DNA of 20,000 nucleotides from an uncultured virus (IMG/VR IMGVR_UViG_3300013108_000147) (Duplodnaviria > Heunggongvirae > Uroviricota > Caudoviricetes > Crassvirales), in IMG/VR virus record IMGVR_UViG_3300013108_000147, one strand, 5' to 3'. Under the pieces are notes generated by a model. It was given only the letters and a program-made list of their open reading frames with translations. It made no database searches and was not told where the DNA came from. Positions 706 through 15,939 of this stretch are shown here, in pieces (within the stretch, counting starts at the first letter, position 1; each line of letters starts with the position of its first letter). The translations under genes and the position numbers were made by a program.

Positions 706-1083
706 TTAAAGTTTTTTAATAGTTGCGTTATTCCATTTACCTATTGGCATGTCTTCGTTTATTAAGATGTCTATTCTCTTACTAAACCTTTTGTTCATCT
801 TGTCCATGACAGTGTACACACCGTCATATTTAGTACCGCTAAGGTAAACCTTAGTCCCTTTAGGGTACTTCGCAAGTAAATCCCTTGACACGGCTATAAT
901 CTTGTGCTTGTAGGGATTGTTCAAGTCTAATTCAAACATGAAAGCTGTGTGCTTTGGGTCTGAGTTAGTCTGCTCTTCAACAGCGTTATACACTGTACAA
1001 ACTACCTGCTCTTGTGCTGATAGTGAAACAAATGTAGTAAATAAAAATAACACTACAAAATATTTTCTAAACTTTTTTTTCAT
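706..1083 (-). CDS. Secreted 3D-domain (RlpA-like double-psi barrel) peptidoglycan-active protein
   Basis: Signal peptide, then TVYN...IIAVSRDLL...GTKVY...YTVMD...RIDIL, the 3D/MltA-like Asp motifs. Confidence 0.8.
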   Translation of the reverse strand: MKKKFRKYFVVLFLFTTFVSLSAQEQVVCTVYNAVEEQTNSDPKHTAFMFELDLNNPYKHKIIAVSRDLLAKYPKGTKVYLSGTKYDGVYTVMDKMNKRFSKRIDILINEDMPIGKWNNATIKKL

Positions 1084-1093
1084 AATTTAAACT

Positions 1094-1342
1094 TTAATCT
1101 TCTATTCTAAATGTTATTAGTCCGTCTTTAGCAAAAGGGATTCCGTACACAGTGTAATTTGTCATAGCTTCAACTTCGTTTATTAAGTCTAGGAAATGGT
1201 AACCCGTATTTTTTGGTATAGGGTATTTAAACTTATCTATACCTGCTTTAGCTCTTTGTTCTGCTATCGTGATTATAGTATTTACATGTGTTTTATAATT
1301 TACAGCTCTTTTCGTTTTACTAACTTTTATTTCCATAATCAT
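1094..1342 (-). CDS. Hypothetical protein
   Basis: ORF track; tight packing in leftward operon (start may be ATG at 1336). Confidence 0.7.
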   Translation of the reverse strand: MIMEIKVSKTKRAVNYKTHVNTIITIAEQRAKAGIDKFKYPIPKNTGYHFLDLINEVEAMTNYTVYGIPFAKDGLITFRIED

Positions 1343-1498
1343 TTATCTAGATGTTAATGCCCATATAACAAGGTAAGGTATGAGTCCTACCACAAAGATA
1401 AATAATAGTCTCCAAAATATGGGGTCTATATTAGTGTAATCTCCTAATCCCTGGCATACGCCACCTACGTAGCCGTCTCTTCTTTTAAATTTTCTCAT
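1343..1498 (-). CDS. pspC: PspC (phage shock protein C) domain membrane protein, 51 aa
   Basis: Not in ORF track. Manual translation MRKFKRRDGYVGGVCQGLGDYTNIDPIFWRLLFIFVVGLIPYLVIWALTSR matches the PspC pattern GVC.Gl..Y..iDp...Rl.f....Y...W. Confidence 0.85.
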   Translation of the reverse strand: MRKFKRRDGYVGGVCQGLGDYTNIDPIFWRLLFIFVVGLIPYLVIWALTSR

Positions 1499-1500
1499 AA

Positions 1501-1830
1501 TTATCTATTTGTATAATAAAATTGATTTCCATCCTCATCTGTAAACATCTTAGATGGTAGTTTAAACTCGCAAGGAACATCTACTAACTCTTCTTCTGTT
1601 CTTACGCCATTGTTTGATAATGTTTCACAAGCACCGTCTACTGCATTTGGATTGTTGTTTAATACATTGATGTATGCGTTGTAATTACTATAGGTCTTTG
1701 TCTGACCATTTAAACATAAAGTCCAAGATTGATTTTTACCACCTACATAAACTTTTTTTGCCTCTTGTGTACATTCGTTCTCGCAATTAAACATTGCTAA
1801 TGTTACTAATAATACTAATACTTTTTTCAT
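1501..1830 (-). CDS. Putative lipoprotein
   Basis: From ATG at 1830: MKKVLVLLVTLAMFNC, a signal peptide II-like sequence ending in Cys. Confidence 0.65.
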   Translation of the reverse strand: MKKVLVLLVTLAMFNCENECTQEAKKVYVGGKNQSWTLCLNGQTKTYSNYNAYINVLNNNPNAVDGACETLSNNGVRTEEELVDVPCEFKLPSKMFTDEDGNQFYYTNR

Positions 1831-1832
1831 TT

Positions 1833-2039
1833 TTACTTGGTTTTTAAATTTATATACCAACCACTATTCATTTCTTCGTTTAATCTATCTTCGCCTTTCT
1901 TTGTAAAGAATTTTTTCTCAAAATCTCCAAAAGTGTGGTAGTCTTTTAACTTGTCAATACATTCTTTTACTGACTCTCCGCTTGTGTAAGTTTCACGATT
2001 TCCGCAGTCGCTTACAATTTTTAATTGATATTTTGCCAT
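1833..2039 (-). CDS. Hypothetical protein
   Basis: ORF track; AT-rich leader, operon packing. Confidence 0.7.
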   Translation of the reverse strand: MAKYQLKIVSDCGNRETYTSGESVKECIDKLKDYHTFGDFEKKFFTKKGEDRLNEEMNSGWYINLKTK

Positions 2040-2056
2040 TTCTATTGGTTTTTAAT

Positions 2057-2242
2057 TTAAAGTTTTACTAATTTTTCCATGACCTCCATTCTGTTGTCCC
2101 AATTGTAGAAACAGAACTTAATGAAGGAGTTTCTGTGTTGCATAGCGTCAGCTTTCTTGAGGAAGGCGTCTATATGCTTTTCATCAGGTGTATAGTTTAA
2201 CTTGTCACACTGATGTATAAAATCGTACATTAATCCTAACAT
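2057..2242 (-). CDS. Hypothetical protein
   Basis: ORF track; operon packing. Confidence 0.65.
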   Translation of the reverse strand: MLGLMYDFIHQCDKLNYTPDEKHIDAFLKKADAMQHRNSFIKFCFYNWDNRMEVMEKLVKL

Positions 2243-2249
2243 AAATTAT

Positions 2250-2405
2250 TTATTTTTCTTCAACATTCGTTAAGTGGTCATACAATAAGTTCATTTGATT
2301 TTTAAAAGATAGAGGTTTTTTTACACACTCGTATCTGCTATACTTGTTATAATAGTAATTTAAGTAGTCTTGAATTACTTTTTTTTCTTTTGGTGTGAGT
2401 TTCAT
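2250..2405 (-). CDS. Hypothetical protein (51 aa, MKLTPKEKKVIQDYLNYYY...)
   Basis: Manually translated; fills intergenic gap. Confidence 0.6.
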   Translation of the reverse strand: MKLTPKEKKVIQDYLNYYYNKYSRYECVKKPLSFKNQMNLLYDHLTNVEEK

Positions 2406-2426
2406 AATATTCACTTTTAAGATTAG

Positions 2427-2726
2427 TTAAAGCTCTCTAATGATTCTCATTTTCTGAGCTAGAACCCAAGTGCCTCCTTGAGACTCGGGTCTATTATAAA
2501 GTTCGTAGTCTTTTACCTCTACTTCAACCCATACTCTACCCTTCTCGGATAGGTGTGGTGCACTCTTCTCTAGGGTACAGTGCCAACCTTTTCTAGGTGC
2601 AAAACCCTTTTTAGGGTGAAACTCTGCATCTATCCAAACGTTTATCGGCACTCTACTTCTCTGATTTATGAACAACGGAGATAAGCTGCCGTCTTTCATC
2701 TTTCTAATTAGCTTGTATGCTTTCAT
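2427..2726 (-). CDS. Conserved-looking phage hypothetical protein
   Basis: ORF track; motif-rich (AYKL...LSPLFIN...KGFAPRKGWH...APHLS...SQGGTW). Confidence 0.75.
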   Translation of the reverse strand: MKAYKLIRKMKDGSLSPLFINQRSRVPINVWIDAEFHPKKGFAPRKGWHCTLEKSAPHLSEKGRVWVEVEVKDYELYNRPESQGGTWVLAQKMRIIREL

Positions 2727-2727
2727 T

Positions 2728-2913
2728 CTAATCTAATTGGTTTAATAATCCTCTTACAATATCTATCTGTTTTTTCAAGTAATCATCTGCGTCAGAAGGT
2801 TCTCTTTCTGATAATGATATTAATAGGTCTTTAAGAGCCCTCTTCCTATGTTCTAGGGACACCTTAACTATACTAGCTGATTCATCATTCAGCACTATGA
2901 TTTTCTGTGACAT
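2728..2913 (-). CDS. Hypothetical protein
   Basis: ORF track; abuts neighbours. Confidence 0.65.
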   Translation of the reverse strand: MSQKIIVLNDESASIVKVSLEHRKRALKDLLISLSEREPSDADDYLKKQIDIVRGLLNQLD

Positions 2914-2919
2914 GTCTGC

Positions 2920-3795
2920 TTAATTATATTTTTTGTTATACCAAGCTAACTTGTTTAAATCTAGCTTAGCGTTATTAGACTTCATGCTTCCTCCGTTTAT
3001 AAACAGTTTGATTGCTTTTTCTTTGTTTATAATGTTATTGGATTTGTTGTCTTCCTTAGGTGACCAACCTAGTCTAAGTATGTAGTTGAGTAGTGCGTCA
3101 TTACTGATGTTGCTTAAGTCTATCTCATCGGAATCTCTCTTAGACAACTTCTTTCCTGAACTGTGGCATACTAAACCTACGTGTGTAAATTTAGGTAAAT
3201 CTTTTTCAATTACAAAACTTTCGTTCAATAATTTCCAAATTAATGTTTGTTTATACGTATTAGATATGTGGTCTACTCCGCGAACTATCCACGTTACATC
3301 TTCATCGTAGTCGTCTACTGTAGATGCAAAGTTGTATGCCGGTGAGCCGTCAGACTTCATTATAACTTGTTCTGAGGCGTACCCTGCAATTTGGTCGTTA
3401 GCTTTCTTTAAACCTGTCAAAGTATCTGTCCAACTACAAGCGTCAACTTTAGTGGTTCCGTCGTAAAGTTCGTAACCTTTATTAAGTCTTATACATCCGT
3501 CATCTTCGATAGCCATACCTAATTCTACAAGTTGATTAGCTACTTCTCTATATCTGCCAAACCTCTCAGACTGCTTGAAAGTCTTGTCGTAGTCTAGACC
3601 AAGCCGTGATAGTGAATCAAATATGGGTTGTATAAGTTCCTCTCTACTACGTGTTAAGTCAGTGTCATCAACACGGACTATAAACTTAGAGTTTGTGTCT
3701 TGCTTAGATATAAGCCAATTGTGGTAAGCTGTTCTAAGTGTACCTATGTGTAACATACCAGTAGGTGATGGTGCTATTCTAACTATTTCTGCCAT
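2920..3795 (-). CDS. Glutamyl-tRNA synthetase catalytic-domain-only protein (GluRS/GluQ-RS-like, 291 aa)
   Basis: RIAPSPTGMLHIG (HIGH), RVDDTD, QSER, YNFASTVDD, IVRGVDH, KKLSKRD (KMSKS), NYILRLGWS, LDLNKLAWYN, then stop; the C-terminal anticodon-binding domains are absent. Confidence 0.92.
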   Translation of the reverse strand: MAEIVRIAPSPTGMLHIGTLRTAYHNWLISKQDTNSKFIVRVDDTDLTRSREELIQPIFDSLSRLGLDYDKTFKQSERFGRYREVANQLVELGMAIEDDGCIRLNKGYELYDGTTKVDACSWTDTLTGLKKANDQIAGYASEQVIMKSDGSPAYNFASTVDDYDEDVTWIVRGVDHISNTYKQTLIWKLLNESFVIEKDLPKFTHVGLVCHSSGKKLSKRDSDEIDLSNISNDALLNYILRLGWSPKEDNKSNNIINKEKAIKLFINGGSMKSNNAKLDLNKLAWYNKKYN

Positions 3796-3799
3796 TGTT

Positions 3800-4177
3800 T
3801 TAAAGTATTATTAATGTGTCGTATAAACTGTTTTGTTCTTCTTTTGATAGAGAGTTCATAAAGTATTTGATATCTGATATATCTTCTAGCGTCTCTATAG
3901 CGCTTCTGACGTGGTGATTCGGGTCGTACACCTCTTTGAATAAAGATATAGCTTTGTTAACACTCGTTATACCCTCATCTAATTTAAGATGTTTGCCTAT
4001 GCTTTTATTGTTCATAAGCATTTGGTCGTAATATAAATCCTCTACCCAAAGGTAGTTGTGGATTATCATAAGAAATCTTTGCGCCTTTTTCGCGTCTTTC
4101 ACGTGGCTTTTATAACCTAGAAGTCTTATGTATCTTCTAAGAGCCTTTTGTCTATTTCTAATATCTTCTCTTGTCAT
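3800..4177 (-). CDS. Hypothetical protein
   Basis: ORF track; operon packing. Confidence 0.7.
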   Translation of the reverse strand: MTREDIRNRQKALRRYIRLLGYKSHVKDAKKAQRFLMIIHNYLWVEDLYYDQMLMNNKSIGKHLKLDEGITSVNKAISLFKEVYDPNHHVRSAIETLEDISDIKYFMNSLSKEEQNSLYDTLIIL

Positions 4178-4262
4178 TATTTCTGTTTTATTTCTTCAAA
4201 ATGTATTTTATGGTAGCGACATTCGTGTCGTTAGCATCGGCTTCAATTTTTATACAGAGCCG

Positions 4263-4460
4263 TTACCACCCATAAGAGTTGTACATTTTTACTATATCCT
4301 CTCTTGTTATAGTTGTGTCTTCCATAAATTCACCATAACCAAACATTTTGTGTTCATAGTGAAATTTTTGTGACTTAGATAATTTATTCCACCACTTAAT
4401 AGCTTTATTACGTGTGGTAACACCACCTAAATTTAATTTATTCTCTTCGTTCATAAACAT
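4263..4460 (-). CDS. Cassette-associated hypothetical protein
   Basis: ORF track; starts inside attC-like element 4414-4482; its TAA stop lies in the GTTA core at 4262. Confidence 0.65.
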   Translation of the reverse strand: MFMNEENKLNLGGVTTRNKAIKWWNKLSKSQKFHYEHKMFGYGEFMEDTTITREDIVKMYNSYGW

Positions 4461-4486
4461 AATTTTAGCTTAACCGTTGTAAGTAA

Positions 4487-4780
4487 TTAAAGGTTCATTT
4501 CTTTTATTTTCATATAAACCATCATTAGTTCAAACAAACTATAACTTGTTTTCTTATAAAGGTATATATTTTCTCCTTGTACGCTTACATACTTTTCACA
4601 CCAATCATCAAAGGTCAGTTCCTTTTTGCTCTTTAACTCCGTACAACAATGTGTATAATTAATAGCTTCTATATCGTTCATTAAACAAGCTACTGTTTTA
4701 ATTGTTTTTTTGTCTGCATCAGCTTTTTCTATGTAAAAATCTATTACTCTTTGCAATATCTGTTTCTTATAATTATCCAT
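4487..4780 (-). CDS. Cassette-associated hypothetical protein
   Basis: ORF track; N-terminal half is encoded in the loop of attC-like element 4641-4835 and reads through the arm as INYTHCC. Confidence 0.65.
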   Translation of the reverse strand: MDNYKKQILQRVIDFYIEKADADKKTIKTVACLMNDIEAINYTHCCTELKSKKELTFDDWCEKYVSVQGENIYLYKKTSYSLFELMMVYMKIKEMNL

Positions 4781-4829
4781 TTTTATTATTTTTAGTTATT
4801 ATTCAAGCTACTAATCATACACTCGTCCG

Positions 4830-5018
4830 TTATGCACCATTACGCAAACTCTTACCTTGCTCTTTCGCCAAAGTTTTTAGTGTTTCCTTTTTTATTAAAA
4901 TACCCTTACAAGGCATTGTTCTGCAAATTGTTTCACAGCCTTCTCTTTCCAATAAATCTAAACCGCATTTAGTGCAAGGTATCCTACCAAGTTCATTGTA
5001 AGTATCTACTACATCCAT
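4830..5018 (-). CDS. Cassette-associated small Cys-rich protein (CxxC...CxxxC)
   Basis: ORF track; stop TAA in GTTA core at 4829. Confidence 0.6.
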   Translation of the reverse strand: MDVVDTYNELGRIPCTKCGLDLLEREGCETICRTMPCKGILIKKETLKTLAKEQGKSLRNGA

Positions 5019-5078
5019 TTTTTACAATTTAAAATTAACGGTGCATAACACCATATAAAATTCATTTCGTTCCTCCCG

Positions 5079-5288
5079 TTAGCCACAATTAACAGGTTGC
5101 TCTTTTGCCATTGTAGCGTTTTCTAAAATACTTATAGCTTGGTTTAGTTCTGAGATAGCATCTAAATCAGCATCAGTATCGGGGCAAGGTGCATCTATCT
5201 TACAGTTTCTTTTTATAAAACTATTTTCTATAAACGTATCCTTTGCTTTTTCTCGTTGTTCTTTTAGTTGTTGAATAATTCTTTCCAT
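5079..5288 (-). CDS. Cassette-associated hypothetical protein (MERIIQQLKEQ...)
   Basis: ORF track gives 5357 as the longest start; ATG at 5288 lies inside the cassette; stop in GTTA core at 5078. Confidence 0.6.
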   Translation of the reverse strand: MERIIQQLKEQREKAKDTFIENSFIKRNCKIDAPCPDTDADLDAISELNQAISILENATMAKEQPVNCG

Positions 5289-5399
5289 AATTAAATTAAC
5301 TGTGGCTAACACAAAAGATAGTGAATAGCCGATTAAACATTTGTTTTTCATAGCCAAGTTTAAGGTGTCGGCTACTCACCATATTCAAGCACGTTGTAG

Positions 5400-5612
5400 T
5401 TAATGTTTTTTACGAAACTTTCGCCATTTAATTTTAATCCATTCTACTAACACAATCACACCAAAGGCAAGTATTAATATCCCAAATATTGATAAACCTA
5501 TTACGTCTTTCCAATTCCAAAACATTGTTGTATCGTTACCGCAAGAGGTAAAAAACACTAACAACAACATTGTATATAGTGCATAGCTTGTTTTTGTTCT
5601 TAATCGTTTCAT
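5400..5612 (-). CDS. Cassette-associated membrane lipoprotein
   Basis: LLLVFFTSC lipobox plus a second TM helix and basic tail; starts inside attC-like element 5562-5692. Confidence 0.65.
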   Translation of the reverse strand: MKRLRTKTSYALYTMLLLVFFTSCGNDTTMFWNWKDVIGLSIFGILILAFGVIVLVEWIKIKWRKFRKKH

Positions 5613-5698
5613 TTTGCTTTTTATTTAAGTTATTTATAAATCATTATTTCGTGCTATAAGGTCGCTACGACACCATACACTAAGCGTTGTGTGTAATG

Positions 5699-6085
5699 CT
5701 ATACTTGCTTGTTAATTTCCTTAAAACACAATATACACTCAGGGTATTGTCTTCTACTATTAAAACTATAAAAACCGCCTTCCATATATTGTTTCCACAA
5801 TTCACTTTTTCTTTTAATTTCTAAAACATCTACCAATAAAAATTTATTAGGATTTAATTTTACAAAATCCCAAGATTTTTTATCTAAAAATCCTTTAAAA
5901 TCACCACTTTGTTTTAATGAGTTGTAATAATTACCTTCATTAATAGTGATAAAAGTTCCTCCGTATTCTCTTGTAAAAGTGTTAAGTTTTACTTTGTTTC
6001 CTTTTGATATTACAACTTGTTTTAAATCTTCTTTTGTCAGTTTTTCAGTATAAAATCTTTTTCTAAGTTTTGAAAGTTCACTCAT
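5699..6085 (-). CDS. Cassette-associated hypothetical protein
   Basis: ORF track; wholly contained in cassette 5686-6128. Confidence 0.7.
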   Translation of the reverse strand: MSELSKLRKRFYTEKLTKEDLKQVVISKGNKVKLNTFTREYGGTFITINEGNYYNSLKQSGDFKGFLDKKSWDFVKLNPNKFLLVDVLEIKRKSELWKQYMEGGFYSFNSRRQYPECILCFKEINKQV

Positions 6086-6177
6086 TATTTCTATATATCA
6101 TTAATTAATAATCCGCACTACACACAACAATATGTATAGTGCATTTTCGTGCCTCAAACGACACCATACACTCAAAG

Positions 6178-6450
6178 TTAGCCACAATTAAATGCCTTTA
6201 ACGTCTCTTCTATCATTGTTTGCCCTACGTAAGTATGTGTACTTTCATTAAATCTGTCTGCCAAATCATTTAACAGTTCACGTTGTTGGCTAACATCAGA
6301 TAAAACAAATTCTATGTCATTGTCATTTATCCGATGGTCTGACCAAGTAATCGCACTTTGAAACAAATCATTCCAATCTGTTGTGCTCTTGTCTATTGTT
6401 ACATCACTGCCTTCAATTTGTAGGTATATTTTTTTAGGTATATTTTTCAT
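6178..6450 (-). CDS. Cassette-associated hypothetical protein (MKNIPKKIYLQI...)
   Basis: Likely ATG at 6450 inside loop of attC-like 6288-6483; reads through the arm as FVLSDVSQQRELL; stop in GTTA core at 6177. Confidence 0.65.
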   Translation of the reverse strand: MKNIPKKIYLQIEGSDVTIDKSTTDWNDLFQSAITWSDHRINDNDIEFVLSDVSQQRELLNDLADRFNESTHTYVGQTMIEETLKAFNCG

Positions 6451-6488
6451 AATCAAACTTGTTTTATCTGTGATACGTTGTATCACAT

Positions 6489-6722
6489 TTATGGTTGTTT
6501 AAATACATTGTCTGCCCACTTAATATATTTCAAAGCATAATCAACACCTGTTAATATATAAGCTAAGTTTAGAGGTACTGCCAACACAATAAACACGATT
6601 GATAAGACAAGGTTTCCTACTGCATATCTTAAACGTGCTACAACACCGTATAAACTTAATTTAGGTTTCTTTTCTAATCCTAAACTTTTAATCATATATT
6701 CTGCGTCTATTTCTTTTTTCAT
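6489..6722 (-). CDS. Cassette-associated membrane protein
   Basis: ORF track; hydrophobic helix; crosses the half-site at 6635-6660 as LSLYGVVAR. Confidence 0.65.
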   Translation of the reverse strand: MKKEIDAEYMIKSLGLEKKPKLSLYGVVARLRYAVGNLVLSIVFIVLAVPLNLAYILTGVDYALKYIKWADNVFKQP

Positions 6723-6742
6723 AATTTCTGTTATTTAATTCA

Positions 6743-7156
6743 TTACACATCAATCAACTCGAATGATTTAGCATTTCTTGTTTTATCGTTCCAATATTTT
6801 TTGTTTAGTTCGTAAGCATCAGACATTCTCAAACCCATAGTTTCAGCAAGTATGTAGAATGGTTTAGTTAAGTAGTTAAATGCTAATGTCATTTCTGTTG
6901 CATCTCCTTCAAAAATTACTTCTTTTTTGTCGTTTAAAATTTGTTTCATATCACTTCGTTGGCTAACAATAGATACACTCAAATTTTTAACCTTAGCTTC
7001 GAGCCATTCTACGTATTCATCACAAAAACCATCTTCATAAGGTGTTTGTCCTGCGTAATCCTGTCTAACAGCCATCACACCATATCCGTTTTCTTTTTTA
7101 AACTTTTCTCTTAAATCCATATTTACTTCTTTTTTGTCGTTTAAAATTTGTTTCAT
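6743..7156 (-). CDS. Chimeric hypothetical protein with duplicated N-terminus MKQILNDKKEV
   Basis: ORF track; 34-bp perfect direct repeat in frame. Confidence 0.65.
   Translation of the reverse strand: MKQILNDKKEVNMDLREKFKKENGYGVMAVRQDYAGQTPYEDGFCDEYVEWLEAKVKNLSVSIVSQRSDMKQILNDKKEVIFEGDATEMTLAFNYLTKPFYILAETMGLRMSDAYELNKKYWNDKTRNAKSFELIDV
6916..7156. repeat. 34-bp perfect direct repeat (6916-6949 and 7123-7156)
   Basis: TTACTTCTTTTTTGTCGTTTAAAATTTGTTTCAT twice, 207 bp apart. Confidence 0.95.
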
Positions 7157-7323
7157 CGCTCAATGTGGTTAAAAATTAACTTCATCACCCAAGCATTTTC
7201 AAACTCATACATACCACAAACTAAACGCGCTTCTTCTGCTGTTTCGTAGTAGTTAATTTTTCCGTTTTCGTCTTTCATATAGTCCATATTTCTAAGGTCT
7301 ATAATTACATATTTGTTTTCCAT
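7153..7323 (-). CDS. Hypothetical protein (56 aa, MENKYVIIDLRNMDYMKDENG...)
   Basis: Manually translated; ATGA overlap with downstream ORF. Confidence 0.7.
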   Translation of the reverse strand: MENKYVIIDLRNMDYMKDENGKINYYETAEEARLVCGMYEFENAWVMKLIFNHIER

Positions 7324-7328
7324 TCCGT

Positions 7329-7529
7329 TCATCTTGTTAGTTTTGAGTTAACTACATCGATAATAACCCAATCGTGAGCACCCTCTTTTTTAAATTCTTC
7401 TAACTCTCTTTCAGAGTCTAAGTAAAAGAAAATGTCATCGTCATCTTCTTCTATGTCTCCGATTTTTAGAACCATATCGTCTTGTATGTTTCCGTCATCT
7501 AACCATTTTATCGTTGCTATAAATCTCAT
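7329..7529 (-). CDS. Acidic hypothetical protein
   Basis: ORF track; probable ATG at 7529 (MRFIATIKW). Confidence 0.7.
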   Translation of the reverse strand: MRFIATIKWLDDGNIQDDMVLKIGDIEEDDDDIFFYLDSERELEEFKKEGAHDWVIIDVVNSKLTR

Positions 7530-7607
7530 TTTAATCCCTTTTAATTTGTAAAACAATTTAATTCCACCCTTACACTTTGAGTGAGGGCTGATAGTGAATC
7601 GCTAATA

Positions 7608-7958
7608 TTAAACATTAAAACGATTATATTCTTGAATAAATTCTACTACTGCCTTATATGTATCTTCTATAGTCCATATGTTTTCGTACCCCTCTGTAAG
7701 TTTTGAGAATGTTTCATCAAATGGTGTGTTATAGTAATCATCCCCTATCTTTTGGACTACTGGCATCAGCCAATCCCAAGAGGTGTGGTATTTTAAATCA
7801 CTAATTCTTTTAACGGCATAAGTACCACTTGGCAAACCCTCACTTCCTTTTACGCAAAGGATTCTTGATTCTCCTATTGTTTGTGGCAGGTTAATTAAAT
7901 TTGGTACACTTGATGGTATACCACTCATAAATTCTGCAATAAGTTTATTGTATTCCAT
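7608..7958 (-). CDS. Phage hypothetical protein (NKLIAEFM...YHTSWDWLMPVV motif; possibly ABA-sandwich-like)
   Basis: ORF track; motif recalled from Bacteroidota phage proteins, family assignment tentative. Confidence 0.7.
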   Translation of the reverse strand: MEYNKLIAEFMSGIPSSVPNLINLPQTIGESRILCVKGSEGLPSGTYAVKRISDLKYHTSWDWLMPVVQKIGDDYYNTPFDETFSKLTEGYENIWTIEDTYKAVVEFIQEYNRFNV

Positions 7959-7992
7959 GATTGTAATTTTTAAGTCTTAGGTTTTTTCGTTT

Positions 7993-8020
7993 AAAATAAA
8001 GCCCCCTATCTCTAGGGGGC
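7993..8020 (-). terminator. Rho-independent terminator downstream of peptidase
   Basis: GCCCCCTA-4nt-TAGGGGGC stem (8001-8020) followed by TTTATTTT on minus strand. Confidence 0.75.
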
Positions 8021-8060
8021 AGGTTAACAATTAAAACAAATAAAACAAATAAACAATATT

Positions 8061-9137
8061 TTAAAACGGTAAGTCTCCGTGTTCGTCAGTATCTTCTAGT
8101 AGCTCTTCTTCGTAAAAACCTTCGAAACTGTCTTTTGTCCAATCTTCTACTTCGTCATCAGATATGTAGTCTTGACAACCGTGGCACCAATGCATTTGGA
8201 CTGTTTCGTCATACTCTAGCTCTCCGTATGTGCCACAAGACATACAGACTAAGTCGTCAGTATTACTAACATTGTTGCTTTCGGTGTCTACGAAGTCGTC
8301 ATCATAGTAGTGGTCAAAGTATCTTGAACCTCCGCCGTATTTGTGGTATCTAGACGTTGCCCATTGTGATAAGACCTCTCTGTCTGCAGTTTTGATAGTG
8401 AACTTTGTGCCACCTAAGTTGTCTATAACATCTTGGACAAAGTCTGCAGTTCTAAACACTTCGCTTATGATTATGTACTCATTGTCAGTGTGGGGGTCGT
8501 AGTATCCGCAAGACATATTTGCTACAGATACTTCTAAGCCATTCTTGGTTAACTGATATACATCTGTCAATCCTCCGTCAGCCTCTACCCTATCGTATTG
8601 TGCTAAGTAGGGTGCTACTGCTTGAGAGAATTCATCGCTATATAGTTTAGTGCTATAGATTGAAGATACAAAGTCTGCGTAACCTCGTCTATCACACTGA
8701 AGGACAAACCCTACATCTGAGAAGAAGGACATAAGAGCCACGCTACTGCCTACACAACCTACTTCCTCGTCTCTGAAGAACGCAACCTTTATGTTGTCAG
8801 TGTTGATAAGTGCTTGAAGGGCTACAAATATACCTACTTTATCGTCACCACCTATACCTACTCTCTCGTATTTATCGTTGATAGCGTAGAGTGCATCTTT
8901 ATGGCGTTTAACATGAAATTCTTTCTCTATATCATGTACTGTGTCTGTGTGAGCTACTACGCAAGGGTAAGCGTCTGACTCACCTTTTGTTGCGTAGATG
9001 TTACCCTTGTTTTTACAAACCCTTACACCGGGGATAGTTGATATATAGTCTATTAAAAACTTGTTCATTTGTTTGGTATTGTAGCTAGTAGTTTGTACTG
9101 CCATTACCGATTTTAAATCTTTTAATCTGCTTTCCAT
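8061..9137 (-). CDS. M20/M28-type Zn-dependent peptidase/amidohydrolase with C-terminal Zn-ribbon and acidic tail
   Basis: AHTDTV, GIGGDDKVG, DEEVGCVGS, QCDRRG and YDPHTDNE metal-ligand motifs; CMSC...CHGC; ends DEHGDLPF. Confidence 0.85.
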   Translation of the reverse strand: MESRLKDLKSVMAVQTTSYNTKQMNKFLIDYISTIPGVRVCKNKGNIYATKGESDAYPCVVAHTDTVHDIEKEFHVKRHKDALYAINDKYERVGIGGDDKVGIFVALQALINTDNIKVAFFRDEEVGCVGSSVALMSFFSDVGFVLQCDRRGYADFVSSIYSTKLYSDEFSQAVAPYLAQYDRVEADGGLTDVYQLTKNGLEVSVANMSCGYYDPHTDNEYIIISEVFRTADFVQDVIDNLGGTKFTIKTADREVLSQWATSRYHKYGGGSRYFDHYYDDDFVDTESNNVSNTDDLVCMSCGTYGELEYDETVQMHWCHGCQDYISDDEVEDWTKDSFEGFYEEELLEDTDEHGDLPF

Positions 9138-9160
9138 TGTTTGTTTATTTAATGTTTTAA

Positions 9161-11764
9161 TTATTCTGATTCTTTCATCTCCTCTAAGTACTCTTCATAG
9201 TACTCAACTAACACGTACTCATCGGCATCGGTAACATGATAATCAGAGTGCTCTAAGCTAAACTCTGTACCCGACTGAGCGCATGTTCCCATATCGTCAC
9301 AATCCCTAACATAACCGCCGTTATAATCTACGTAAATAGCGTGAGATTCGTGTATGTACTCTCCGTCAAGCAACTCTACTGCGTCATCGTTCAATATATA
9401 CTCACCTGAATATTCGCAGTAAGTAGCGTTATCTATGTGTGTATTTATTCCTCTACTATCTATGTAAACAGCGTCTCCGCTATATATGTATCTATGATCC
9501 CAATCGTCGTACTCTCTTTCTTCCAAGTTACTGTGCTCACCTTCAGTAGACCTAAGCTCTGTTACCTCGTCACGGCTACTCAAGTACCCCGACAATTCTC
9601 CCGAATCTATATTAAGGTAGTAGAATGTGTCTAAGTAAGGGAATCCATCGTCATCACTTGGTATATGGTCAAGCATAATACTTATGTCTTCAGAGCTCTC
9701 TGTTTCATTTCCGTCAGGAGACACAAAGTTACACGTTGAAGAGTCTTGATGTTCTTTACACCAAAAACCTTTGTCTCTTGCAAAACTCTTGAAAGCGCTG
9801 ATAGTGGCATCAGTACCATATATTCTGTCTAGCCACTTATTATCCCAAAGAAGTGCCCTACCTTTAAGTAGGTCATCCTTAGTTAGAATAACCAATTTAA
9901 CTTGGTTAGGGTTCTCTGTGTATATATCTAACCAAGGTAAACATTGTTCGTGTCTCATGCATGACGAGCCTAGTGTACCTACGTTTTCATTGTGGTGATT
10001 AGAGCCGTCATACCAATGTCTTATATCCTCTCCTGTAACTATACTGAAATTTCCTACGCTATACTCGCCTTTGATAGAGTTAACTAACTTCTCAATCTCG
10101 TGGTCAGTAAACTTCTTTCTAGGTACTTGCTCGCTAAGTACTTTCCTAATCAACTTGCCGTACTTTGACGATTGTCTGCCTTTAGAGCTCCATTTGTAAC
10201 CGTCTGTTATCACAGTCTCCTTGCCTGCAGGCGTGTAAGTCATAGATTGGTCTGCTTTAATCGTGATGTTTCTAGTACTGTCTTTGTAGTAGCCTAAAGA
10301 ACTAATCTTAGTAAGAGTTTTAGCTACAGAGTTTTTATCTGCAAACTTCATTAGAACATTAAATAAACTTTCAGAAAACAATTGTGTCTCTAAGTCAGAG
10401 TTATATCTTGGCGTCATGCTATACAACTTATGTCTTTTACGGAATATTAGTCTTTGACTCCAATTAGATTCTCTAATATTCCTTTCAAAATTAGCTATGT
10501 ATCTCAACGTATCGTTATACTTAGCCGCGTCTTCAGAGTTAGCTCTCCTTATAACTATTTCAGTGTTATCAACCGTAAACGTGTTTCCAAAGTTCGTGCC
10601 GGAGTACCTTATATATTCGCCCGATTGTTTATCAACTACTACTAACTTTCTTGTTTTCCAATACTTAACTAAGCGTTCTTTCCCGTATTTTACTACGTAG
10701 AGTTCTCCCGACCTAAGACTTGTGACTGATAGTGAATCTTCTTTTGTATTACCATTAAGTAAAGCGTAATTAAATGCTCCCGTATCCGCAATGGTAGTTA
10801 TTTCGTAAAGTGCGTGCCCTTTGTAATTAACGAGTAAGTCTAGCACAGTGTTGTAATAACCAACAACGTATTCACCCTCAGACGCAACATAGCCTTCGTA
10901 TACTCTGATTACGGTTATTCCCCCTCCATTCCCAAAACTGTTCTTAATATATAGGGTTGACTTACCTTCTTCAAACAAATCTCTGCTGATAGCTGAGATT
11001 GATTCCTCGCTAAGCTCTACGGGTACGAAACTATCTTCTGTAAATGTTTCGCCTTTATCATGCATTGCAACCCCAGTTGCTTGTCGAAGCGCTTCGTTTA
11101 AATTGAACATTACTGCCTCTACCTCGTACATGTTTCTAACTTTAACAGTGGCTATATTAGGTGCAAAGTGACTATGCTTCTTTTCAATCACTAAAGAGTT
11201 ACCTAACATAAGCCTGCTATTAATCATGTACTTAAAATTTGGTAAAATGTATTGTAGAGTCTCTAAGCTACCGTAGAGTCTTCTTGAGTCTTCTACCATT
11301 ACACCTAGCACACCTTCGCCGTCTATAAGTAGTGTAAGAGACTCATACCCATATTCGTTGTCAGTCATACTACGTATAGCGTCAAGAAGATAAGGTATGT
11401 GTTCACCTAAAGAGTAGTGCAGTGAGGTAAACGCTGTTACAAACTTACTCAAGTCTCTATCTTTTGTACTACTAAAACTTGACGTTGGTGAGCCTTCATA
11501 ATAGCTGAATTCATGTTTTAGAGCCGATTGTAAAAGCTGCTTAGGTATTTCGTCTGACAAACGCAATAGTGGTATATACCCCACATTTAAACAACGCTTA
11601 ACAGATGATACGTTTAAACTATGTATCACAGTATCCGAATGCCTTGCTGTTCTAAACTCTTGCAAGTTAGAGTTGGAGTCTGTTAAAAAGGGTACTGTTA
11701 GTTCCTCGTGGCTTTTGTTCTTGTCTGAATCCGTCAGTAATTCTTCGTGAAAAAGTCTCTTCAT
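9161..11764 (-). CDS. Large phage protein of unknown function (867 aa)
   Basis: Long ORF; C-terminal half has SCMR...GRALLW...WLDRIY...FPYLDTF motifs and acidic Tyr/Cys repeats. Confidence 0.85.
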   Translation of the reverse strand: MKRLFHEELLTDSDKNKSHEELTVPFLTDSNSNLQEFRTARHSDTVIHSLNVSSVKRCLNVGYIPLLRLSDEIPKQLLQSALKHEFSYYEGSPTSSFSSTKDRDLSKFVTAFTSLHYSLGEHIPYLLDAIRSMTDNEYGYESLTLLIDGEGVLGVMVEDSRRLYGSLETLQYILPNFKYMINSRLMLGNSLVIEKKHSHFAPNIATVKVRNMYEVEAVMFNLNEALRQATGVAMHDKGETFTEDSFVPVELSEESISAISRDLFEEGKSTLYIKNSFGNGGGITVIRVYEGYVASEGEYVVGYYNTVLDLLVNYKGHALYEITTIADTGAFNYALLNGNTKEDSLSVTSLRSGELYVVKYGKERLVKYWKTRKLVVVDKQSGEYIRYSGTNFGNTFTVDNTEIVIRRANSEDAAKYNDTLRYIANFERNIRESNWSQRLIFRKRHKLYSMTPRYNSDLETQLFSESLFNVLMKFADKNSVAKTLTKISSLGYYKDSTRNITIKADQSMTYTPAGKETVITDGYKWSSKGRQSSKYGKLIRKVLSEQVPRKKFTDHEIEKLVNSIKGEYSVGNFSIVTGEDIRHWYDGSNHHNENVGTLGSSCMRHEQCLPWLDIYTENPNQVKLVILTKDDLLKGRALLWDNKWLDRIYGTDATISAFKSFARDKGFWCKEHQDSSTCNFVSPDGNETESSEDISIMLDHIPSDDDGFPYLDTFYYLNIDSGELSGYLSSRDEVTELRSTEGEHSNLEEREYDDWDHRYIYSGDAVYIDSRGINTHIDNATYCEYSGEYILNDDAVELLDGEYIHESHAIYVDYNGGYVRDCDDMGTCAQSGTEFSLEHSDYHVTDADEYVLVEYYEEYLEEMKESE

Positions 11765-11815
11765 TTTTTATTGTTTTAATTGTATTTAAGTTTTACTTCT
11801 AGTTCTGATAGTGAA

Positions 11816-11980
11816 TTAACCGTATATGCCGAACTGATAAGTTTGTTCAGTTGTTAGGAGGGTGTACAAAATTAATAAGGCGCACCCCGCTATAAAGCCT
11901 ACTACGCAATAAGATATGCGCATGGTTAATTCTGTAGGCTCTCCGTTGTTGTCTACAAACTTGTTTAAAAGTGTTTTCAT
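11816..11980 (-). CDS. Small membrane protein
   Basis: Probable ATG at 11980 (MKTLLNKF); one TM helix. Confidence 0.6.
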   Translation of the reverse strand: MKTLLNKFVDNNGEPTELTMRISYCVVGFIAGCALLILYTLLTTEQTYQFGIYG

Positions 11981-12089
11981 ACCGATAATTTTAATATGTA
12001 AGTTAATAAGCACAAAAGGAGAAATGCTGCTGCAAATCTCCCTAATGCTATAATGTTATCTTTTGTTATGATGTCTTTGATAAACTCTC

Positions 12090-12329
12090 TCATACTTTTG
12101 GTACGTATTGAGTTATATTTCTATCGTCTACATAAATGTCTAGTGGCACATGCCCTGTAACTTCAACCATAACGATTTCTACTGCGTCGCTAGGTATGTC
12201 TACAACTGTTTCAAATTCTGCAGTTGCAAGGTCGTTTGCGCAAACATTGTTAATAAAATGATTTCCACCGTGGTCTACTCGGTTCTTGTTTCCGTTTGCG
12301 TCTGTCCAAACTTGATTAAAATATCCCAT
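12090..12329 (-). CDS. Hypothetical protein
   Basis: ORF track; AT-rich leader. Confidence 0.7.
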   Translation of the reverse strand: MGYFNQVWTDANGNKNRVDHGGNHFINNVCANDLATAEFETVVDIPSDAVEIVMVEVTGHVPLDIYVDDRNITQYVPKV

Positions 12330-12358
12330 TTTCTATTTGATTTTAAGGGTTAAACTTG

Positions 12359-12438
12359 TACCCGCAGTGTGATTCGAACACACGTCTAAACATCTGTGTA
12401 TCATAGATGAATTGTCCTAACCTCTAGACGATGCGGGC
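12359..12438 (-). tRNA. tRNA-Glu-scaffold tRNA-like RNA with aberrant 25-nt anticodon arm (copy 1)
   Basis: GCCCGCA/TGCGGGT acceptor stem, TC-GTCTAGAGGTTAGGAC-A D arm, AGAC variable loop, GTGTG-TTCGAAT-CACAC T arm; no canonical anticodon loop, no encoded CCA. Confidence 0.8.
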
Positions 12439-12451
12439 GCACTTTAATTAT

Positions 12452-12883
12452 TTATATTAAGCTATTACGTAGCTTATCTATAAACGATTCAACCTCATTG
12501 GATTGTTTTTCTATTTCGTCACTCCATACCTTTGCTAGATGAATAGAAAGGATTTGATTTTCTTTTAAAACACGTTCTTTTGTCCAAATATTTTCAGTAC
12601 CAAACCAAACAGTGTCCCATCCTACTACCCACATGTCCTCCATGTCTGCAACCTCTTCCCATCCTATAATATCGTCTGAGTTTTTAGAGAATGTAAGATT
12701 AACATGAGCATGGTGTTCTAACTTCTTATTTATCTCACCATATCCTAAACCGAAGTACGGATGTCTTCTTGGTAGTGCAACATATCCGTTTCCCCAACCT
12801 CCTAACCCTTGTGGAGTCCAAGTGTTTTCTTTTAAAAATGCTTTCATGATATTTATATTAAATTTGTTTATTATCTCAGCCAT
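12452..12883 (-). CDS. Conserved phage hypothetical protein (NGYVALP..HP...LTF...WVVGWD family)
   Basis: ORF track; motif pattern recalled from phage proteins. Confidence 0.75.
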   Translation of the reverse strand: MAEIINKFNINIMKAFLKENTWTPQGLGGWGNGYVALPRRHPYFGLGYGEINKKLEHHAHVNLTFSKNSDDIIGWEEVADMEDMWVVGWDTVWFGTENIWTKERVLKENQILSIHLAKVWSDEIEKQSNEVESFIDKLRNSLI

Positions 12884-13113
12884 CTGTTCAATTTTAAAGC
12901 TATTTTATATCTTAAAGTATTGCCGTGTTTTGCACGATTGATAGTGAACGCTATCTTATAGATTTGATAACCCACGACCATAGCAGTTAAGCCTACAGTT
13001 TTAACTACTACAAATGTTTGTAGGTTAAAGCCATTAGTTTGTTCTGCTAACACTAAGCATAGCCCTGCCATTATAAGCAAAGCTGATATGCTAAAAGTTA
13101 ATATGTGTCTCAT
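12871..13113 (-). CDS. Two-TM membrane protein
   Basis: ORF track; two hydrophobic helices, basic C-terminus. Confidence 0.7.
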   Translation of the reverse strand: MRHILTFSISALLIMAGLCLVLAEQTNGFNLQTFVVVKTVGLTAMVVGYQIYKIAFTINRAKHGNTLRYKIALKLNRWLR

Positions 13114-13115
13114 GA

Positions 13116-13268
13116 TTATATTAGTTTTAATTGCCTTTGCATTTCTTTATAGCGCATAATATCCCACGCTTTTTTATAGCCTATGTTATGTAATTGCATT
13201 AATTTATGCACCATTTTTTCTTCGATAGACTGCACTCGCATACGTCTACGTTTTGGTTTATTTGCCAT
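13116..13268 (-). CDS. Small basic protein (50 aa, MANKPKRRRMRVQSIEEK...)
   Basis: Manually translated; AT-rich leader, abuts next gene. Confidence 0.6.
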   Translation of the reverse strand: MANKPKRRRMRVQSIEEKMVHKLMQLHNIGYKKAWDIMRYKEMQRQLKLI

Positions 13269-13291
13269 TTTTATTTAATTTAATTGATTTG

Positions 13292-13371
13292 CACCCATAG
13301 ACAGATTCGAACTGCCGTCTATACACCGCGACGATTTTAGTGTATTGTCCTAGCCACTAGACGATATGGGC
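13292..13371 (-). tRNA. tRNA-Glu-scaffold tRNA-like RNA with aberrant 25-nt anticodon arm (copy 2)
   Basis: GCCCATA/TATGGGT acceptor stem, TC-GTCTAGTGGCTAGGAC-A D arm, ATACAC-13nt-GTGTAT arm, AGAC, GGCAG-TTCGAAT-CTGTC T arm. Confidence 0.8.
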
Positions 13372-13375
13372 ATGA

Positions 13376-13408
13376 TATAAAAAGCCCTACACTTTTACAT
13401 GTAGGGCT
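13376..13408 (-). terminator. Terminator-like hairpin between Rho-N gene and tRNA-like copy 2
   Basis: AGCCCTACA-8nt-TGTAGGGCT (13383-13408) running into a T-run on minus strand. Confidence 0.6.
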
Positions 13409-13438
13409 GTGAGGGATATGGATTGAGGCAAAAAAGGT

Positions 13439-13861
13439 TTATGCCGTTACTAAAGCTATTAATTCAGCTTTTTTCATCTTTGAAAATTTGGTTTTACCTT
13501 GTTTTTTAGCTACCTCTTTAAGCTGCGCTACGTTCATCTTCTCAATTGGAGTTAATGTAGGTGCAGTATCAGATAAATTCGCAGCGCTTTTAATAGCCTT
13601 GTGTATTGCTTGTAACACAAAGAATGGGCTGTAATTTCCTGCCTTTGAAACTCGCACGTTCTCCTTGAATGTAGCGTAAACATCGTTGTTTTCTCTAATC
13701 TCACTCAATATTTGAATGTATTGCGTGCTAAGCTCTATTTCATCTCTAAAAAGCCACAGTATTTTTACTGCACCTCCTAATGATTTGCACTCTCGTTTTA
13801 ACGCCTTGTTAGTGTTTAAAACGTTCATTTTGTAAGCTGAAATTTTGTTTGATTTTGCCAT
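13439..13861 (-). CDS. Protein with C-terminal Rho termination factor N-terminal (HeH-like) nucleic-acid-binding domain
   Basis: IEKMNVAQLKEVAKKQGKTKFSKMKKAELIALV matches the Rho_N consensus. Confidence 0.8.
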   Translation of the reverse strand: MAKSNKISAYKMNVLNTNKALKRECKSLGGAVKILWLFRDEIELSTQYIQILSEIRENNDVYATFKENVRVSKAGNYSPFFVLQAIHKAIKSAANLSDTAPTLTPIEKMNVAQLKEVAKKQGKTKFSKMKKAELIALVTA

Positions 13862-14616: not shown

Positions 14617-14635
14617 CGTGGCATTTTTGACATAG

Positions 14636-15939
14636 TAAAATCCTGATAATCAAGCAGTTAGAAATTAAAGTGTTGATAATCAGACAGTTAGCTAAGTAGC
14701 TGAGTATCAAGGACTTAAGCAAAATGCCTTCTCGGTTAAAGCGCTGAGTATCAGGTAGTTAGCTTGTTTGTAATCGCCGTTTTTCCCAAACTGAAAACCT
14801 AGAGTAAAAAAAATTCAAAAAAAATTAAAAAGGGCTTATAAGTAACTGATATTCAAGTAGTTACAAGCAAAAAAAATTTTAAAATTAGCTTTAAAGTTAA
14901 AAGGTTGATAATCAAGCAGTTATAAAATCGAGTTTGTAAGTAGCTGAGTATCAATAAGTTATAAATTTAAAAAATTACGTTTGTAAGTATCTGAGAATCA
15001 AGTAGTTAGAGTAAGTAGTTGATAATGAGGCAGTTACGTTAAAGTGTTGATACTCAAGTAGTTAGATTAAAACGTAGTTAAAAGTTAAAGCGCTGAAAAT
15101 CAGGTAGTTAAGTTTTGGCTAGGTAGCAGTTAAACTAAAGTACTGATACTCAAGGGTTTAGGTACAAAGAGTGTTTGTAAGTAGCTGAGGTTCAGGCAGT
15201 TACGATTCTGGCTCATAAGGTAGATTAAAGGTAAAACGTTGATAATGAGGCAGTTACGGCTAAGTAGCTGAGTATCAGGCGCTTACACCGGCACCGAGAA
15301 TTAAATAGTCGTAACTATCTGAAAGTCAGGCAATTAGGCGTAACTATCTGAGAATCAGGCGCTTACACTGGCACCGAGACTTAAATAGGCGTAACTATCT
15401 GAGTATCAGGCGCTTACACCGGCAAGCATATTTAAGTAGTTGTAACTATCTGAGAATCAGGTAATTAGACGTAACTAATTGATAATGAGGCAGTTAGATT
15501 AACTCTTAAAGTATATGGAATTCGCGCGCGCGTAAAGAGCGTAACTATCTGAGAATGAAGCAGTTAGACGTAACTAATTGATAATGAGGCAGTTACGGTA
15601 GAGTGGGTGAATTGAGTGGGTAAATAATTGATAATGAGGCAGTTACGGGTAAGTGTTTGATAGTCAAATGATTAGAGTATAAGTAGTTAATAGTAATATA
15701 TAAGCCTGAGTATCAAGCAGTTAGAATAAAAAACCTACAATACATAACTGTTAAGCGCCTGATTGTCAAGGTGTTAAGTTTGTTAAGCTAGTGTTTAACA
15801 GATTTTACAGATACATTAGACAAAAGATGTAACTATCTGAGTATCAGCGATTTAGACTAGTGTTTTAGGGCATTTCAATAAATAAGTTATTAAAAAAGTC
15901 AAAAAATTTGCTCGTAAAAGCCTGAAAATCAAGCCCGTA
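14636..15939. repeat. Array of ~28 quasi-palindromic 25-bp repeats TAA-N5-TGA-N3-T(C/G)A-N5-TTA (IHF-consensus-like)
   Basis: Copies counted by eye from 14636 to 15915; right half fits WATCARNNNNTTR in most copies. Confidence 0.9.

Follow-up and report, generated by a model that had tools for sequence, protein, structure and literature searches.

RESULTS

A GluRS-like gene, two tRNA-Glu-like RNAs, and a protein-peptidase pair on one strand of a crassvirus genome

We analyzed a 20,000-nt stretch of DNA from the uncultured virus IMGVR_UViG_3300013108_000147 (Crassvirales), which we refer to as the window, and concentrated on the region from position 2920 to position 13371. The minus strand of the window carries genes from ~200 to 13861, many of them small open reading frames (ORFs), and this leftward region looks like a phage early region. 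It encodes a 291-aa protein resembling the catalytic core of glutamyl-tRNA synthetase (GluRS), two 80-nt RNAs that resemble tRNA-Glu, and, lying between them just as the original prediction from this DNA had placed them, an 867-aa protein with what we call the SCM domain and a 358-aa metallo-exopeptidase (Table 1). We propose, at about even confidence, that the core, the two RNAs, the SCM protein, and the exopeptidase form a four-part phage module for Glu-tRNA-dependent transfer.

Table 1. Features of the studied region, with positions in the window
Feature	Position	Strand	Evidence or remark
tRNA-Glu-like RNA 1, 80 nt	13292..13371	-	RF00005 50.7 bits; model R1 67.6 bits
tRNA-Glu-like RNA 2, 80 nt	12359..12438	-	RF00005 41.3 bits; model R1 69.8 bits
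Terminator-like hairpin, 10 bp then T run	13383..13408	-	Ends 11 nt upstream of RNA 1
867-aa SCM protein	9161..11764	-	Alignments A4/A5; AlphaFold2 (AF2) model; no Pfam/PHROG match
358-aa MH-clan metallo-exopeptidase	8061..9137	-	phrog_4191 E 1.8e-55; AF2 model and Foldseek
125-aa protein, function unknown	3800..4177	-	Gene cluster 22; tblastn
291-aa GluRS catalytic core	2920..3795	-	PF00749 E 5.8e-50

Affiliation of the GluRS core

The 291-aa translation contains a HIGH-type motif (HIGT), a KMSKS-type motif (KLSKR), and the motifs NY..LGWS and D..KL.W.N, and it has no CxC pair; each of these features, claimed at the outset, can be read directly from the ORF. Its sole Pfam domain is the class I Glu/Gln catalytic domain. 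The NCBIfam model gltX_bact (TIGR00464) aligned to the protein at 225.9 bits, below its curated cut-off of 289.95, and the alignment stopped at profile position 315 of 470, which bears out the prediction of a class I GluRS that ends where the anticodon-binding domains would start. The absence of these domains was equally apparent from solved structures: in the 12 best solved bacterial GluRS, 448 to 526 residues long, the family profile ends at residues 292 to 361. The core belongs to a large phage family whose members are ~260 to 330 aa long. Nearly all of the scored candidates (7929 of 8000) were homologues of the core at E ≤0.001, and because the best 120 of the 7929 are all short (234 to 365 aa) and carry PF00749 alone, we take the short form to be the native form. 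An alignment of 42 family members contains 30 invariant and 49 nearly invariant columns.

An enzyme like GluQ-RS (YadB) had been put forward as the alternative, with phylogeny as the check, and the phylogeny did not favor it. Viral and metagenome scans provided 93 core loci (numbered with an L), and the 92 with a called ORF fell into 70 groups at 95% identity. A quick maximum-likelihood tree was built from 61 cores and five cellular references (three GltX, two GluQRS), with one row per nonredundant group and an ORF length of 230 to 340 aa, nine groups being left out for length. Sixty phage cores formed one clade (SH-aLRT 100), with L125 and the three GltX references just outside, and the two GluQRS references were separated from the phage cores and GltX by a branch with a support of 100. 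GluQRS models did match the core (E 2.4e-41), although TIGR03838 reached only 141.9 bits, which is lower than gltX_bact and below its own cut-off of 276.7. When the core-family profile was compared with the PDB, 22 bacterial GluRS (E 3e-75 to 3e-45) ranked above the GluQRS of E. coli (1nzj, 5.7e-37). Judged on its sequence, the core is a GltX-derived catalytic half and not a GluQRS.

tRNA-Glu bodies without a usable anticodon

Both RNAs exceed the Rfam RF00005 gathering score of 29, and ARAGORN, run over the whole window, returned 0 tRNAs. Alignment with cmscan showed intact acceptor, D, and T arms in both, with inserts of 11 and 15 nt where RF00005 has 3 and 7; the oversized insert falls exactly in the anticodon arm, and neither arm has a 5-bp stem with a 7-nt loop. 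RNA 1 has G1.U72, discriminator G, no encoded CCA, and an anticodon-arm helix of 6 to 7 bp closed by a loop of 11 to 13 nt, while RNA 2 has G1.U72, discriminator A, no encoded CCA, and an arm consisting of a 5-bp helix flanked by mismatches and a 9-nt loop. UUC or CUC is found at the anticodon-loop position in neither RNA, and together with the ARAGORN result this agrees with the earlier claim that neither has a usable anticodon. We rejected the idea that a normal tRNA-Glu arises by splicing out the insert, given that the four odd arms of the clade to which the window belongs (two in the window, one each in L113 and L115) have no UUC or CUC in loop context.

In E. coli, according to section 16 of PMC9976931, the D-helix part of the tRNA-Glu identity set consists of U11:A24 and of U13:G22 with A46, residue 47 being absent. 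Both of our RNAs show U11:A24 and U13.G22, and their variable region is 4 nt long (A44-G45-A46-C48) and hence without residue 47, so that this part of the set is retained in each, as had been predicted. The rest of the E. coli set (U34, U35, C36, and A37; G1:C72 and U2:A71) is not, as both have G.U at position 1:72 and C:G at position 2:71.

A covariance model of the scaffold (R1), in which the anticodon arm was left unstructured, was run over 94 sources and recovered ordinary tRNA-Glu genes plus many odd ones. L113 and L115 have cores with 66% identity to that of the window and one odd RNA each, with 7-bp arms of unrelated sequence. Elsewhere, L020 has three, L029 has two, and L008, L042, and L117 have one each, and five loci (L047, L063, L056, L054, and L048) have arrays of two to five tRNA-Glu-like RNAs of 84 to 116 nt with a hairpin insert in the D loop and variable anticodon arms. 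Odd RNAs occur in all three deep clades of the core, with up to five per locus.

The arrays with D-loop inserts (L047:15706-16583, L063:17449-18592, L056:13929-14814, L054:7245-7709, and L048:20436-20750) lie 3 to 10 kb downstream of GluRS cores of ~280 aa. Nearly all of their RNAs share the acceptor stem GGTCTGT/ACAGACT (one L054 RNA has GGTCCAT); the RNA at 20667 in L048 keeps a UUC loop, and another member has a UCG loop.

Anticodon-arm sequences are unrelated among homologues, and each odd arm nonetheless forms a helix; as arm-fold boundaries were misparsed for several RNAs with D-loop inserts, we use only the window-clade rows and this general statement about helices. In an alignment of 33 scaffolds (31 distinct), which was fitted to the covariance model and is thus biased toward structure, 99.0% of cells were paired and 11 of 16 pairs had changed on both sides. 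None of 500 shuffles equaled the observed pairing values, and slid controls dropped to 27 to 51% paired. Three base pairs, U11:A24, C12:G23, and U13.G22, are invariant in all 31 distinct Glu-scaffold RNAs. As far as their sequences can tell, these RNAs are selected and structured, not decaying genes.

We also considered G1.U72 as a hallmark. It is present in 22 of 30 odd RNAs, 11 of 27 canonical ones, and 4 of 4 Glu RNAs at SCM loci, and we rejected it as too weak given its presence in 18 of 53 control non-Glu tRNAs. Canonical tRNA-Glu genes beside the cores in L017, L027, L030, L038, and L050 nearly all have G1:C72 with G2.U71, in contrast to the G1.U72 of the window clade and of the tRNA-Glu genes at SCM loci. 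A G.U wobble at the first or second acceptor pair may serve as an identity mark, the signal at 1:72 being weak in view of those controls.

The core is linked to tRNA-Glu across phages

Glu-scaffold RNAs, canonical or odd, were present in the fetched flanks of 23 of the 70 core groups, always on the same strand as the core, and in ten groups a canonical tRNA-Glu lies ≤1.2 kb from the core. Glu accounts for 22 of 52 ARAGORN tRNAs within 1.2 kb of a core and for 7 of the 113 more distant ones (odds ratio 11, Fisher p 7e-8), a test that counts the genes of one array separately, so that they are not independent. Directly upstream of the core in L017, L018, L027, L030, and L050, the only tRNAs are three to five tRNA-Glu(UUC/CUC) genes. 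The predicted dedicated enzyme-RNA pair is therefore only partly upheld: the proposed co-occurrence check did link the core to tRNA-Glu scaffolds, but the core family also sits beside ordinary tRNA-Glu(UUC/CUC) arrays and, taken as a whole, is thus not limited to RNAs that have lost the anticodon.

Several jumbo-phage core loci contain tRNAs that ARAGORN classes as suppressor types (UUA, UCA, CUA; L011/L012:8640-8715, L058:8275-8353, and L070/L071:20104-20177), which hints at stop-codon reassignment in those phages.

A large family of SCM proteins and an intact metallopeptidase

The N-terminal half of the 867-aa protein is lineage specific. It is followed by the conserved SCM domain at about residues 508 to 800 (window ~9365-10243) and, C-terminal to this, by an acidic beta-hairpin and a Zn-ribbon-like repeat region. 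S601-C602-M603, R636, D646-R647-x-Y649, and P709-Y710-x-D712 are invariant in alignments A4 and A5. A word-based homologue search with the protein found only 5 proteins and the ESM Atlas gave no usable match; an exhaustive profile search found 4875 representative clusters at E ≤0.001, 1884 of them at E ≤1e-30. A scan of bacterial and archaeal species genomes with A4 patterns returned no SCM relative, the patterns being narrow enough that absence is not implied, and a scan of viral contigs with alignment A6 returned only its four source loci. Carriers among cultured phages are the Cellulophaga phages phi38:1, phi40:1, and Calle_1-3. In five huge-phage records (LR756501-LR756504 and LR745206), SCM matches occur at 7 to 15 places each together with a GluRS-like gene, and this multiplicity suggests large paralogous expansions.

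An AF2 model of residues 500 to 800, based on a 78-sequence alignment, had a predicted local distance difference test score (pLDDT) of 92.5. Foldseek returned nothing at E ≤0.001 for this model; the top rows, at E 0.1 to 1, were all GNAT proteins, and they include weak matches to the aminoacyl-tRNA users MprF, FemX, and Sbb17/Sba18. The model thus points, with modest scores, to a GNAT-like fold for the SCM domain.

The peptidase has a C-terminal Zn ribbon, and its weak Pfam scores fall below the gathering thresholds (M28, 20.3 versus 21.3; M20, 19.7 versus 24.6; M42, 17.0 versus 23.2). Its AF2 model (pLDDT 81.9) matched PepT (3gb0, E 8.6e-11) and M42 TET peptidases (~5e-10), and also DapE and carboxypeptidase G2, among 293 Foldseek matches at E ≤0.001. 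All 18 sequences compared share eight residues (H63, D65, D98, D99, E124, E125, D149, and H216), and we take these to be the metal ligands and the catalytic Glu. By its modeled fold, the protein is an intact dinuclear metallo-exopeptidase of the MH clan (M20/M42/M28-like), and with these residues in place it is probably active.

The SCM-peptidase pair is linked to the core and to tRNA-Glu

The peptidase occurs in 11 of the 92 core loci (the window, L113, L115, L106, L109, L111, L029, L020, L008, L042, and L009), which are spread over all three deep core clades. Directly upstream of each peptidase there is a large ORF, as far as contigs allow (those of L106, L109, and L111 stop at the SCM gene). 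This ORF matches the SCM-domain profile in the window clade and in L029, and in L020, L008, L042, and L009 it encodes a protein of 533 to 621 aa in which the motifs S/T-C-M, G-R-x-Y, and P-Y-x-D recur in the same order. The gene order in the window clade is odd RNA, large protein, peptidase, 125-aa protein, and core, compressed to ~4 to 5 kb in L113 and L115. Seven of the eight loci that combine core and pair and have enough flank contain odd RNAs, the exception being L009.

Approaching from the SCM side, we obtained 19 further loci, some of them near-duplicates, from two viral scans with SCM alignments. The peptidase is present in 17 and adjoins the SCM gene in 16, in either order. None of the 19 has a GluRS core, and the scaffold model found no odd RNAs in them; their ARAGORN tRNAs are 10 tRNA-Glu(UUC) and 1 tRNA-Ile. 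Among loci with a Glu-scaffold RNA beside the pair, those with a core have odd RNAs in seven cases of seven and those without a core have canonical ones only in eight of eight (p ~1.6e-4, kinship ignored). In other words, anticodon-less RNAs were seen only where the GluRS core was also present. The conserved pair near the core in three deep clades, and the tRNA-Glu beside the core-less pair, both support the early suggestion that the system includes the 867-aa protein and the peptidase.

The closest parallel in a cultured phage is found in Cellulophaga phage phi38:1 (Pervagoviridae, Callevirus), whose genome is of similar size (~72.5 kb). Its gp037, annotated as hypothetical, is a homologous SCM protein (36% identity over the domain) with the same peptidase partner, gp038. 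Upstream of these genes, on their strand, are two tRNA-Glu(UUC) genes that are identical to each other and have G1.U72; the six other tRNAs are clustered elsewhere, on the other strand. The window RNAs occupy the position corresponding to these tRNA-Glu genes; phi38:1 differs in that its anticodons are canonical and it has no GluRS core. A few kilobases downstream of the tRNA-Glu, peptidase, and SCM genes, phi38:1 gp030 (L151:15602-17005) encodes an RtcB "tRNA splicing ligase."

Related records and other features of the window

In the nearest virus record (G001, 54 kb, completeness estimated at 75%), both RNAs are present and score identically, and RtcB was not found. Contigs of 72.4 to 72.9 kb encode proteins identical or near-identical to those of the window, and the region is present in three DNA runs, all from one marine/seawater study. 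Neither a single-protein scan of viral contigs nor a distant blastn search of GenBank phages with the RNA region found a close relative.

The 125-aa protein is encoded immediately upstream of the GluRS core in eight loci of the window clade, as found by clustering and tblastn, and had no family match in Pfam or PHROG. The window proteins with PHROG matches include an endonuclease V and members of several uncharacterized families; the former is a 120-aa ORF at 206-568 that matches phrog_1183 (phage endonuclease V, pyrimidine-dimer glycosylase) at E 2.5e-33. Where leftward genes give way to rightward ones, ~1.2 kb (14620-15860) is nearly free of ORFs, with none of ≥30 aa between 14955 and 15851, and contains more than 20 direct and inverted copies of an imperfect palindromic motif of 17 to 25 nt. 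In appearance, this stretch resembles an iteron array, an origin, or a dense set of binding sites for a regulator.

At 12360-12862, contigs of two DNA runs contain a joint, roughly half as deep as its surroundings, that bypasses 12361-12861, together with a reciprocal joint that goes back. Such a joint would delete RNA 2 and the ORF at 12452-12883 in part of the population; being anchored by only 30 nt on one side, it may be an effect of the assembly graph.

DISCUSSION

A proposed path for glutamate

Building on the anatomy, family membership, conservation, and co-occurrence that we observed, we infer charging, a glutamyl transfer, a role for the peptidase, and an acceptor along the following lines. 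The 291-aa core would place glutamate on the 3' end of the tRNA-Glu-shaped RNAs, recognizing the acceptor and the augmented D-helix scaffold, with the anticodon unreadable to it. The two 80-nt RNAs would be dedicated, nondecoding glutamate carriers, descended from the pair of tRNA-Glu genes that occupies this position in related phages. The GNAT-like SCM domain may then move the glutamyl group from the charged RNA to an acceptor, for which protein, cell wall, DNA, and a small molecule are candidates, and the M20/M42-type exopeptidase may act on the same substrate, preparing or trimming it.

This proposal offers an account of why anticodons are lost in some phages and kept in others. According to section 16 of PMC9976931, U34, U35, C36, and A37 are strong determinants for host GluRS. 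Because of this dependence, a phage tRNA without a private, anticodon-blind synthetase must keep its anticodon, and the pattern of odd RNAs with the core and canonical ones without it fits that expectation. Core-less phages would keep UUC so that host GluRS can charge their tRNA-Glu, while phages with an anticodon-blind core would be released from this constraint, allowing the anticodon arm to drift into arbitrary hairpins.

Comparison with known systems

The core shares with GltX the class I fold, the HIGH and KMSKS motifs, and its best profile and tree affinity, but it ends where the anticodon-binding domains of GltX begin, falls below the NCBIfam cut-off, is phage encoded, and forms its own clade. 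GluQRS (YadB) is the only GluRS paralogue with a noncanonical role listed in a 2022 review (PMC9437257). At ~300 aa and with no anticodon-binding domain, it resembles the phage core; however, it falls in a separate clade, its models score lower, and it modifies queuosine in tRNA-Asp, whereas the genomic partner of the phage core is a tRNA-Glu scaffold.

The proposed module would work like a known class, the aminoacyl-tRNA-dependent GNAT-fold transferases (FemX, MprF, L/F-transferase, ATE1, and phage Mu Mom), although with unusually novel parts. The likeness would lie in the GNAT-like core modeled for the SCM domain. According to PMC13219725, Mom, itself a GNAT, modifies DNA with the use of Gly-tRNA-Gly, and it is thus a phage-encoded precedent; for SCM, there is a genetic link to one tRNA species. 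SCM differs from these transferases in having no detected sequence relationship to them and its own invariants (S-C-M, R, D-R-x-Y, and P-Y-x-D), and in being paired with a metallopeptidase and sometimes with its own synthetase and putative anticodon-less carriers.

Among tRNA-shaped amino acid carriers outside ordinary decoding are the staphylococcal tRNA-Gly species for cell-wall synthesis, tmRNA, and viral tRNA-like structures. Here, by comparison, the tRNA body is complete and the anticodon arm alone is replaced, and the putative carriers are virus encoded, present in one to five copies, and linked to a dedicated minimal synthetase. We found no published account of a phage truncated GluRS with anticodon-less tRNA-Glu, or of the SCM family, in full-text searches that did not extend to subscription journals or bioRxiv supplements.

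Weighing the proposal

Several observations weigh against the transfer module. Near ten of the core groups there are just ordinary tRNA-Glu arrays, which fits a plain translational role there, and none of these ten canonical-array groups has an SCM-peptidase pair within 10 kb. Many core loci with odd RNAs (e.g., L047, L056, L063, and L054) likewise have no SCM or peptidase gene within 10 kb. Conversely, the record containing L009 (G007, a complete 62.5-kb genome with terminal repeats) has a core, an SCM-like ORF, and a peptidase, and its only tRNA is a tRNA-Tyr. The SCM loci with tRNA-Glu may for the most part belong to one viral lineage, their counts then being inflated by shared descent. Of 18 SCM family members, none had a Pfam match on the domain and 0 of 18 matched GNAT models (there was one weak PHROG match), and the SCM profile found no sequence relative in the PDB, just a chance match at E 0.32. 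The core tree rests on only five cellular reference sequences. Finally, one RNA run from the study that also supplied the DNA runs gave a single contig on the region, 151 nt inside ORF 12452-12883 at a depth of 2.5, and none over the RNAs or the core, a result that says nothing either way.

Alternatively, the core and tRNA-Glu could serve as a translation back-up or counter-defense that sustains Glu decoding under attack on host tRNA-Glu or GluRS, with the anticodon-less RNAs acting as decoys or sponges for a host factor that recognizes the tRNA-Glu body and the SCM-peptidase pair an unrelated neighbor. Ordinary tRNA-Glu(UUC/CUC) arrays of two to five genes directly upstream of the core in L017, L018, L027, L030, and L050 suit this explanation, as do the RtcB gene near the phi38:1 tRNA-Glu genes and the position of the core family in tRNA-rich regions of jumbo phages. 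Yet an anticodon-less RNA is incapable of decoding and still keeps the full covariation of the scaffold, chance neighborhood fails to explain why 10 of the 11 tRNAs near core-less pairs are Glu, and RtcB was missing from our search of the 75%-complete nearest relative; we therefore regard this alternative as unlikely. The notion that the RNAs are decaying, functionless tRNA-Glu pseudogenes, with the core also a leftover, would account for their rejection by ARAGORN, for anticodon arms that differ freely among relatives, and for the half-depth joint that would remove RNA 2. It is difficult to reconcile with compensatory changes that keep the acceptor, D, and T helices, with anticodon arms that always re-form a helix, with the recurrence of odd RNAs in every deep core clade, or with the invariant and nearly invariant columns of the core, and we give it hardly any credence.

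Two further explanations keep the charging enzyme and change its purpose. The charged RNAs might be substrates for a host enzyme that draws on Glu-tRNA outside translation, with the glutamyl-tRNA reductase of C5 tetrapyrrole synthesis as the candidate, and so uncouple the supply of heme precursor from protein synthesis. Glu-tRNA is the C5 substrate, so a nondecoding Glu carrier would fit, and the hypothesis, published in PMC11480375, that phages gain by sparing tRNA-Glu for translation also counts in its favor. With no tetrapyrrole genes among the Pfam and PHROG matches in the window, and with the tight linkage between tRNA-Glu and the SCM-peptidase pair left unexplained, we think it improbable. 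The core might instead modify RNA as GluQRS does, attaching glutamate to a modified base, possibly in the odd loops, and not to the 3' end. It has no anticodon-binding domain, like GluQRS, and is matched by the GluQRS models, but the higher gltX_bact score, the placement with GltX in the tree, and the structure ranking all run counter to this, the odd loops lack a conserved base that might serve as a shared target, and the Pfam and PHROG matches in the window include no queuosine genes, which makes a modifying role highly improbable.

Implications

If the transfer module is real, it could be part of something broader. It is possible, though we hold this more doubtfully than the module itself, that marine phages run a private, nonribosomal aminoacyl economy in which a minimal, anticodon-blind GluRS charges virus-encoded tRNA-Glu bodies with variable arms, and the very large, hitherto unrecognized GNAT-like family (4875 clusters) draws on the resulting Glu-RNA to glutamylate a macromolecule, with a dedicated metallopeptidase alongside. 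By analogy with Mom, phage or host DNA would be one candidate acceptor, and the variable arms and multicopy arrays might even direct individual carriers to partners of their own.

If confirmed, the core and its RNAs would be the first natural pair of synthetase and tRNA body in which the anticodon has been dropped altogether. tRNA-Glu identity could then rest on the acceptor and the D helix alone, which would bear on adaptor recognition and on the design of orthogonal pairs. After Mom, this would be the second phage example of a charged tRNA diverted to a nonribosomal target, and it would give a very large phage family that has no Pfam or PHROG model its first functional lead, as a Glu-tRNA-dependent transferase. 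Since phi38:1 is a cultured model with a simpler, three-part version of the system, the hypothesis is directly testable.

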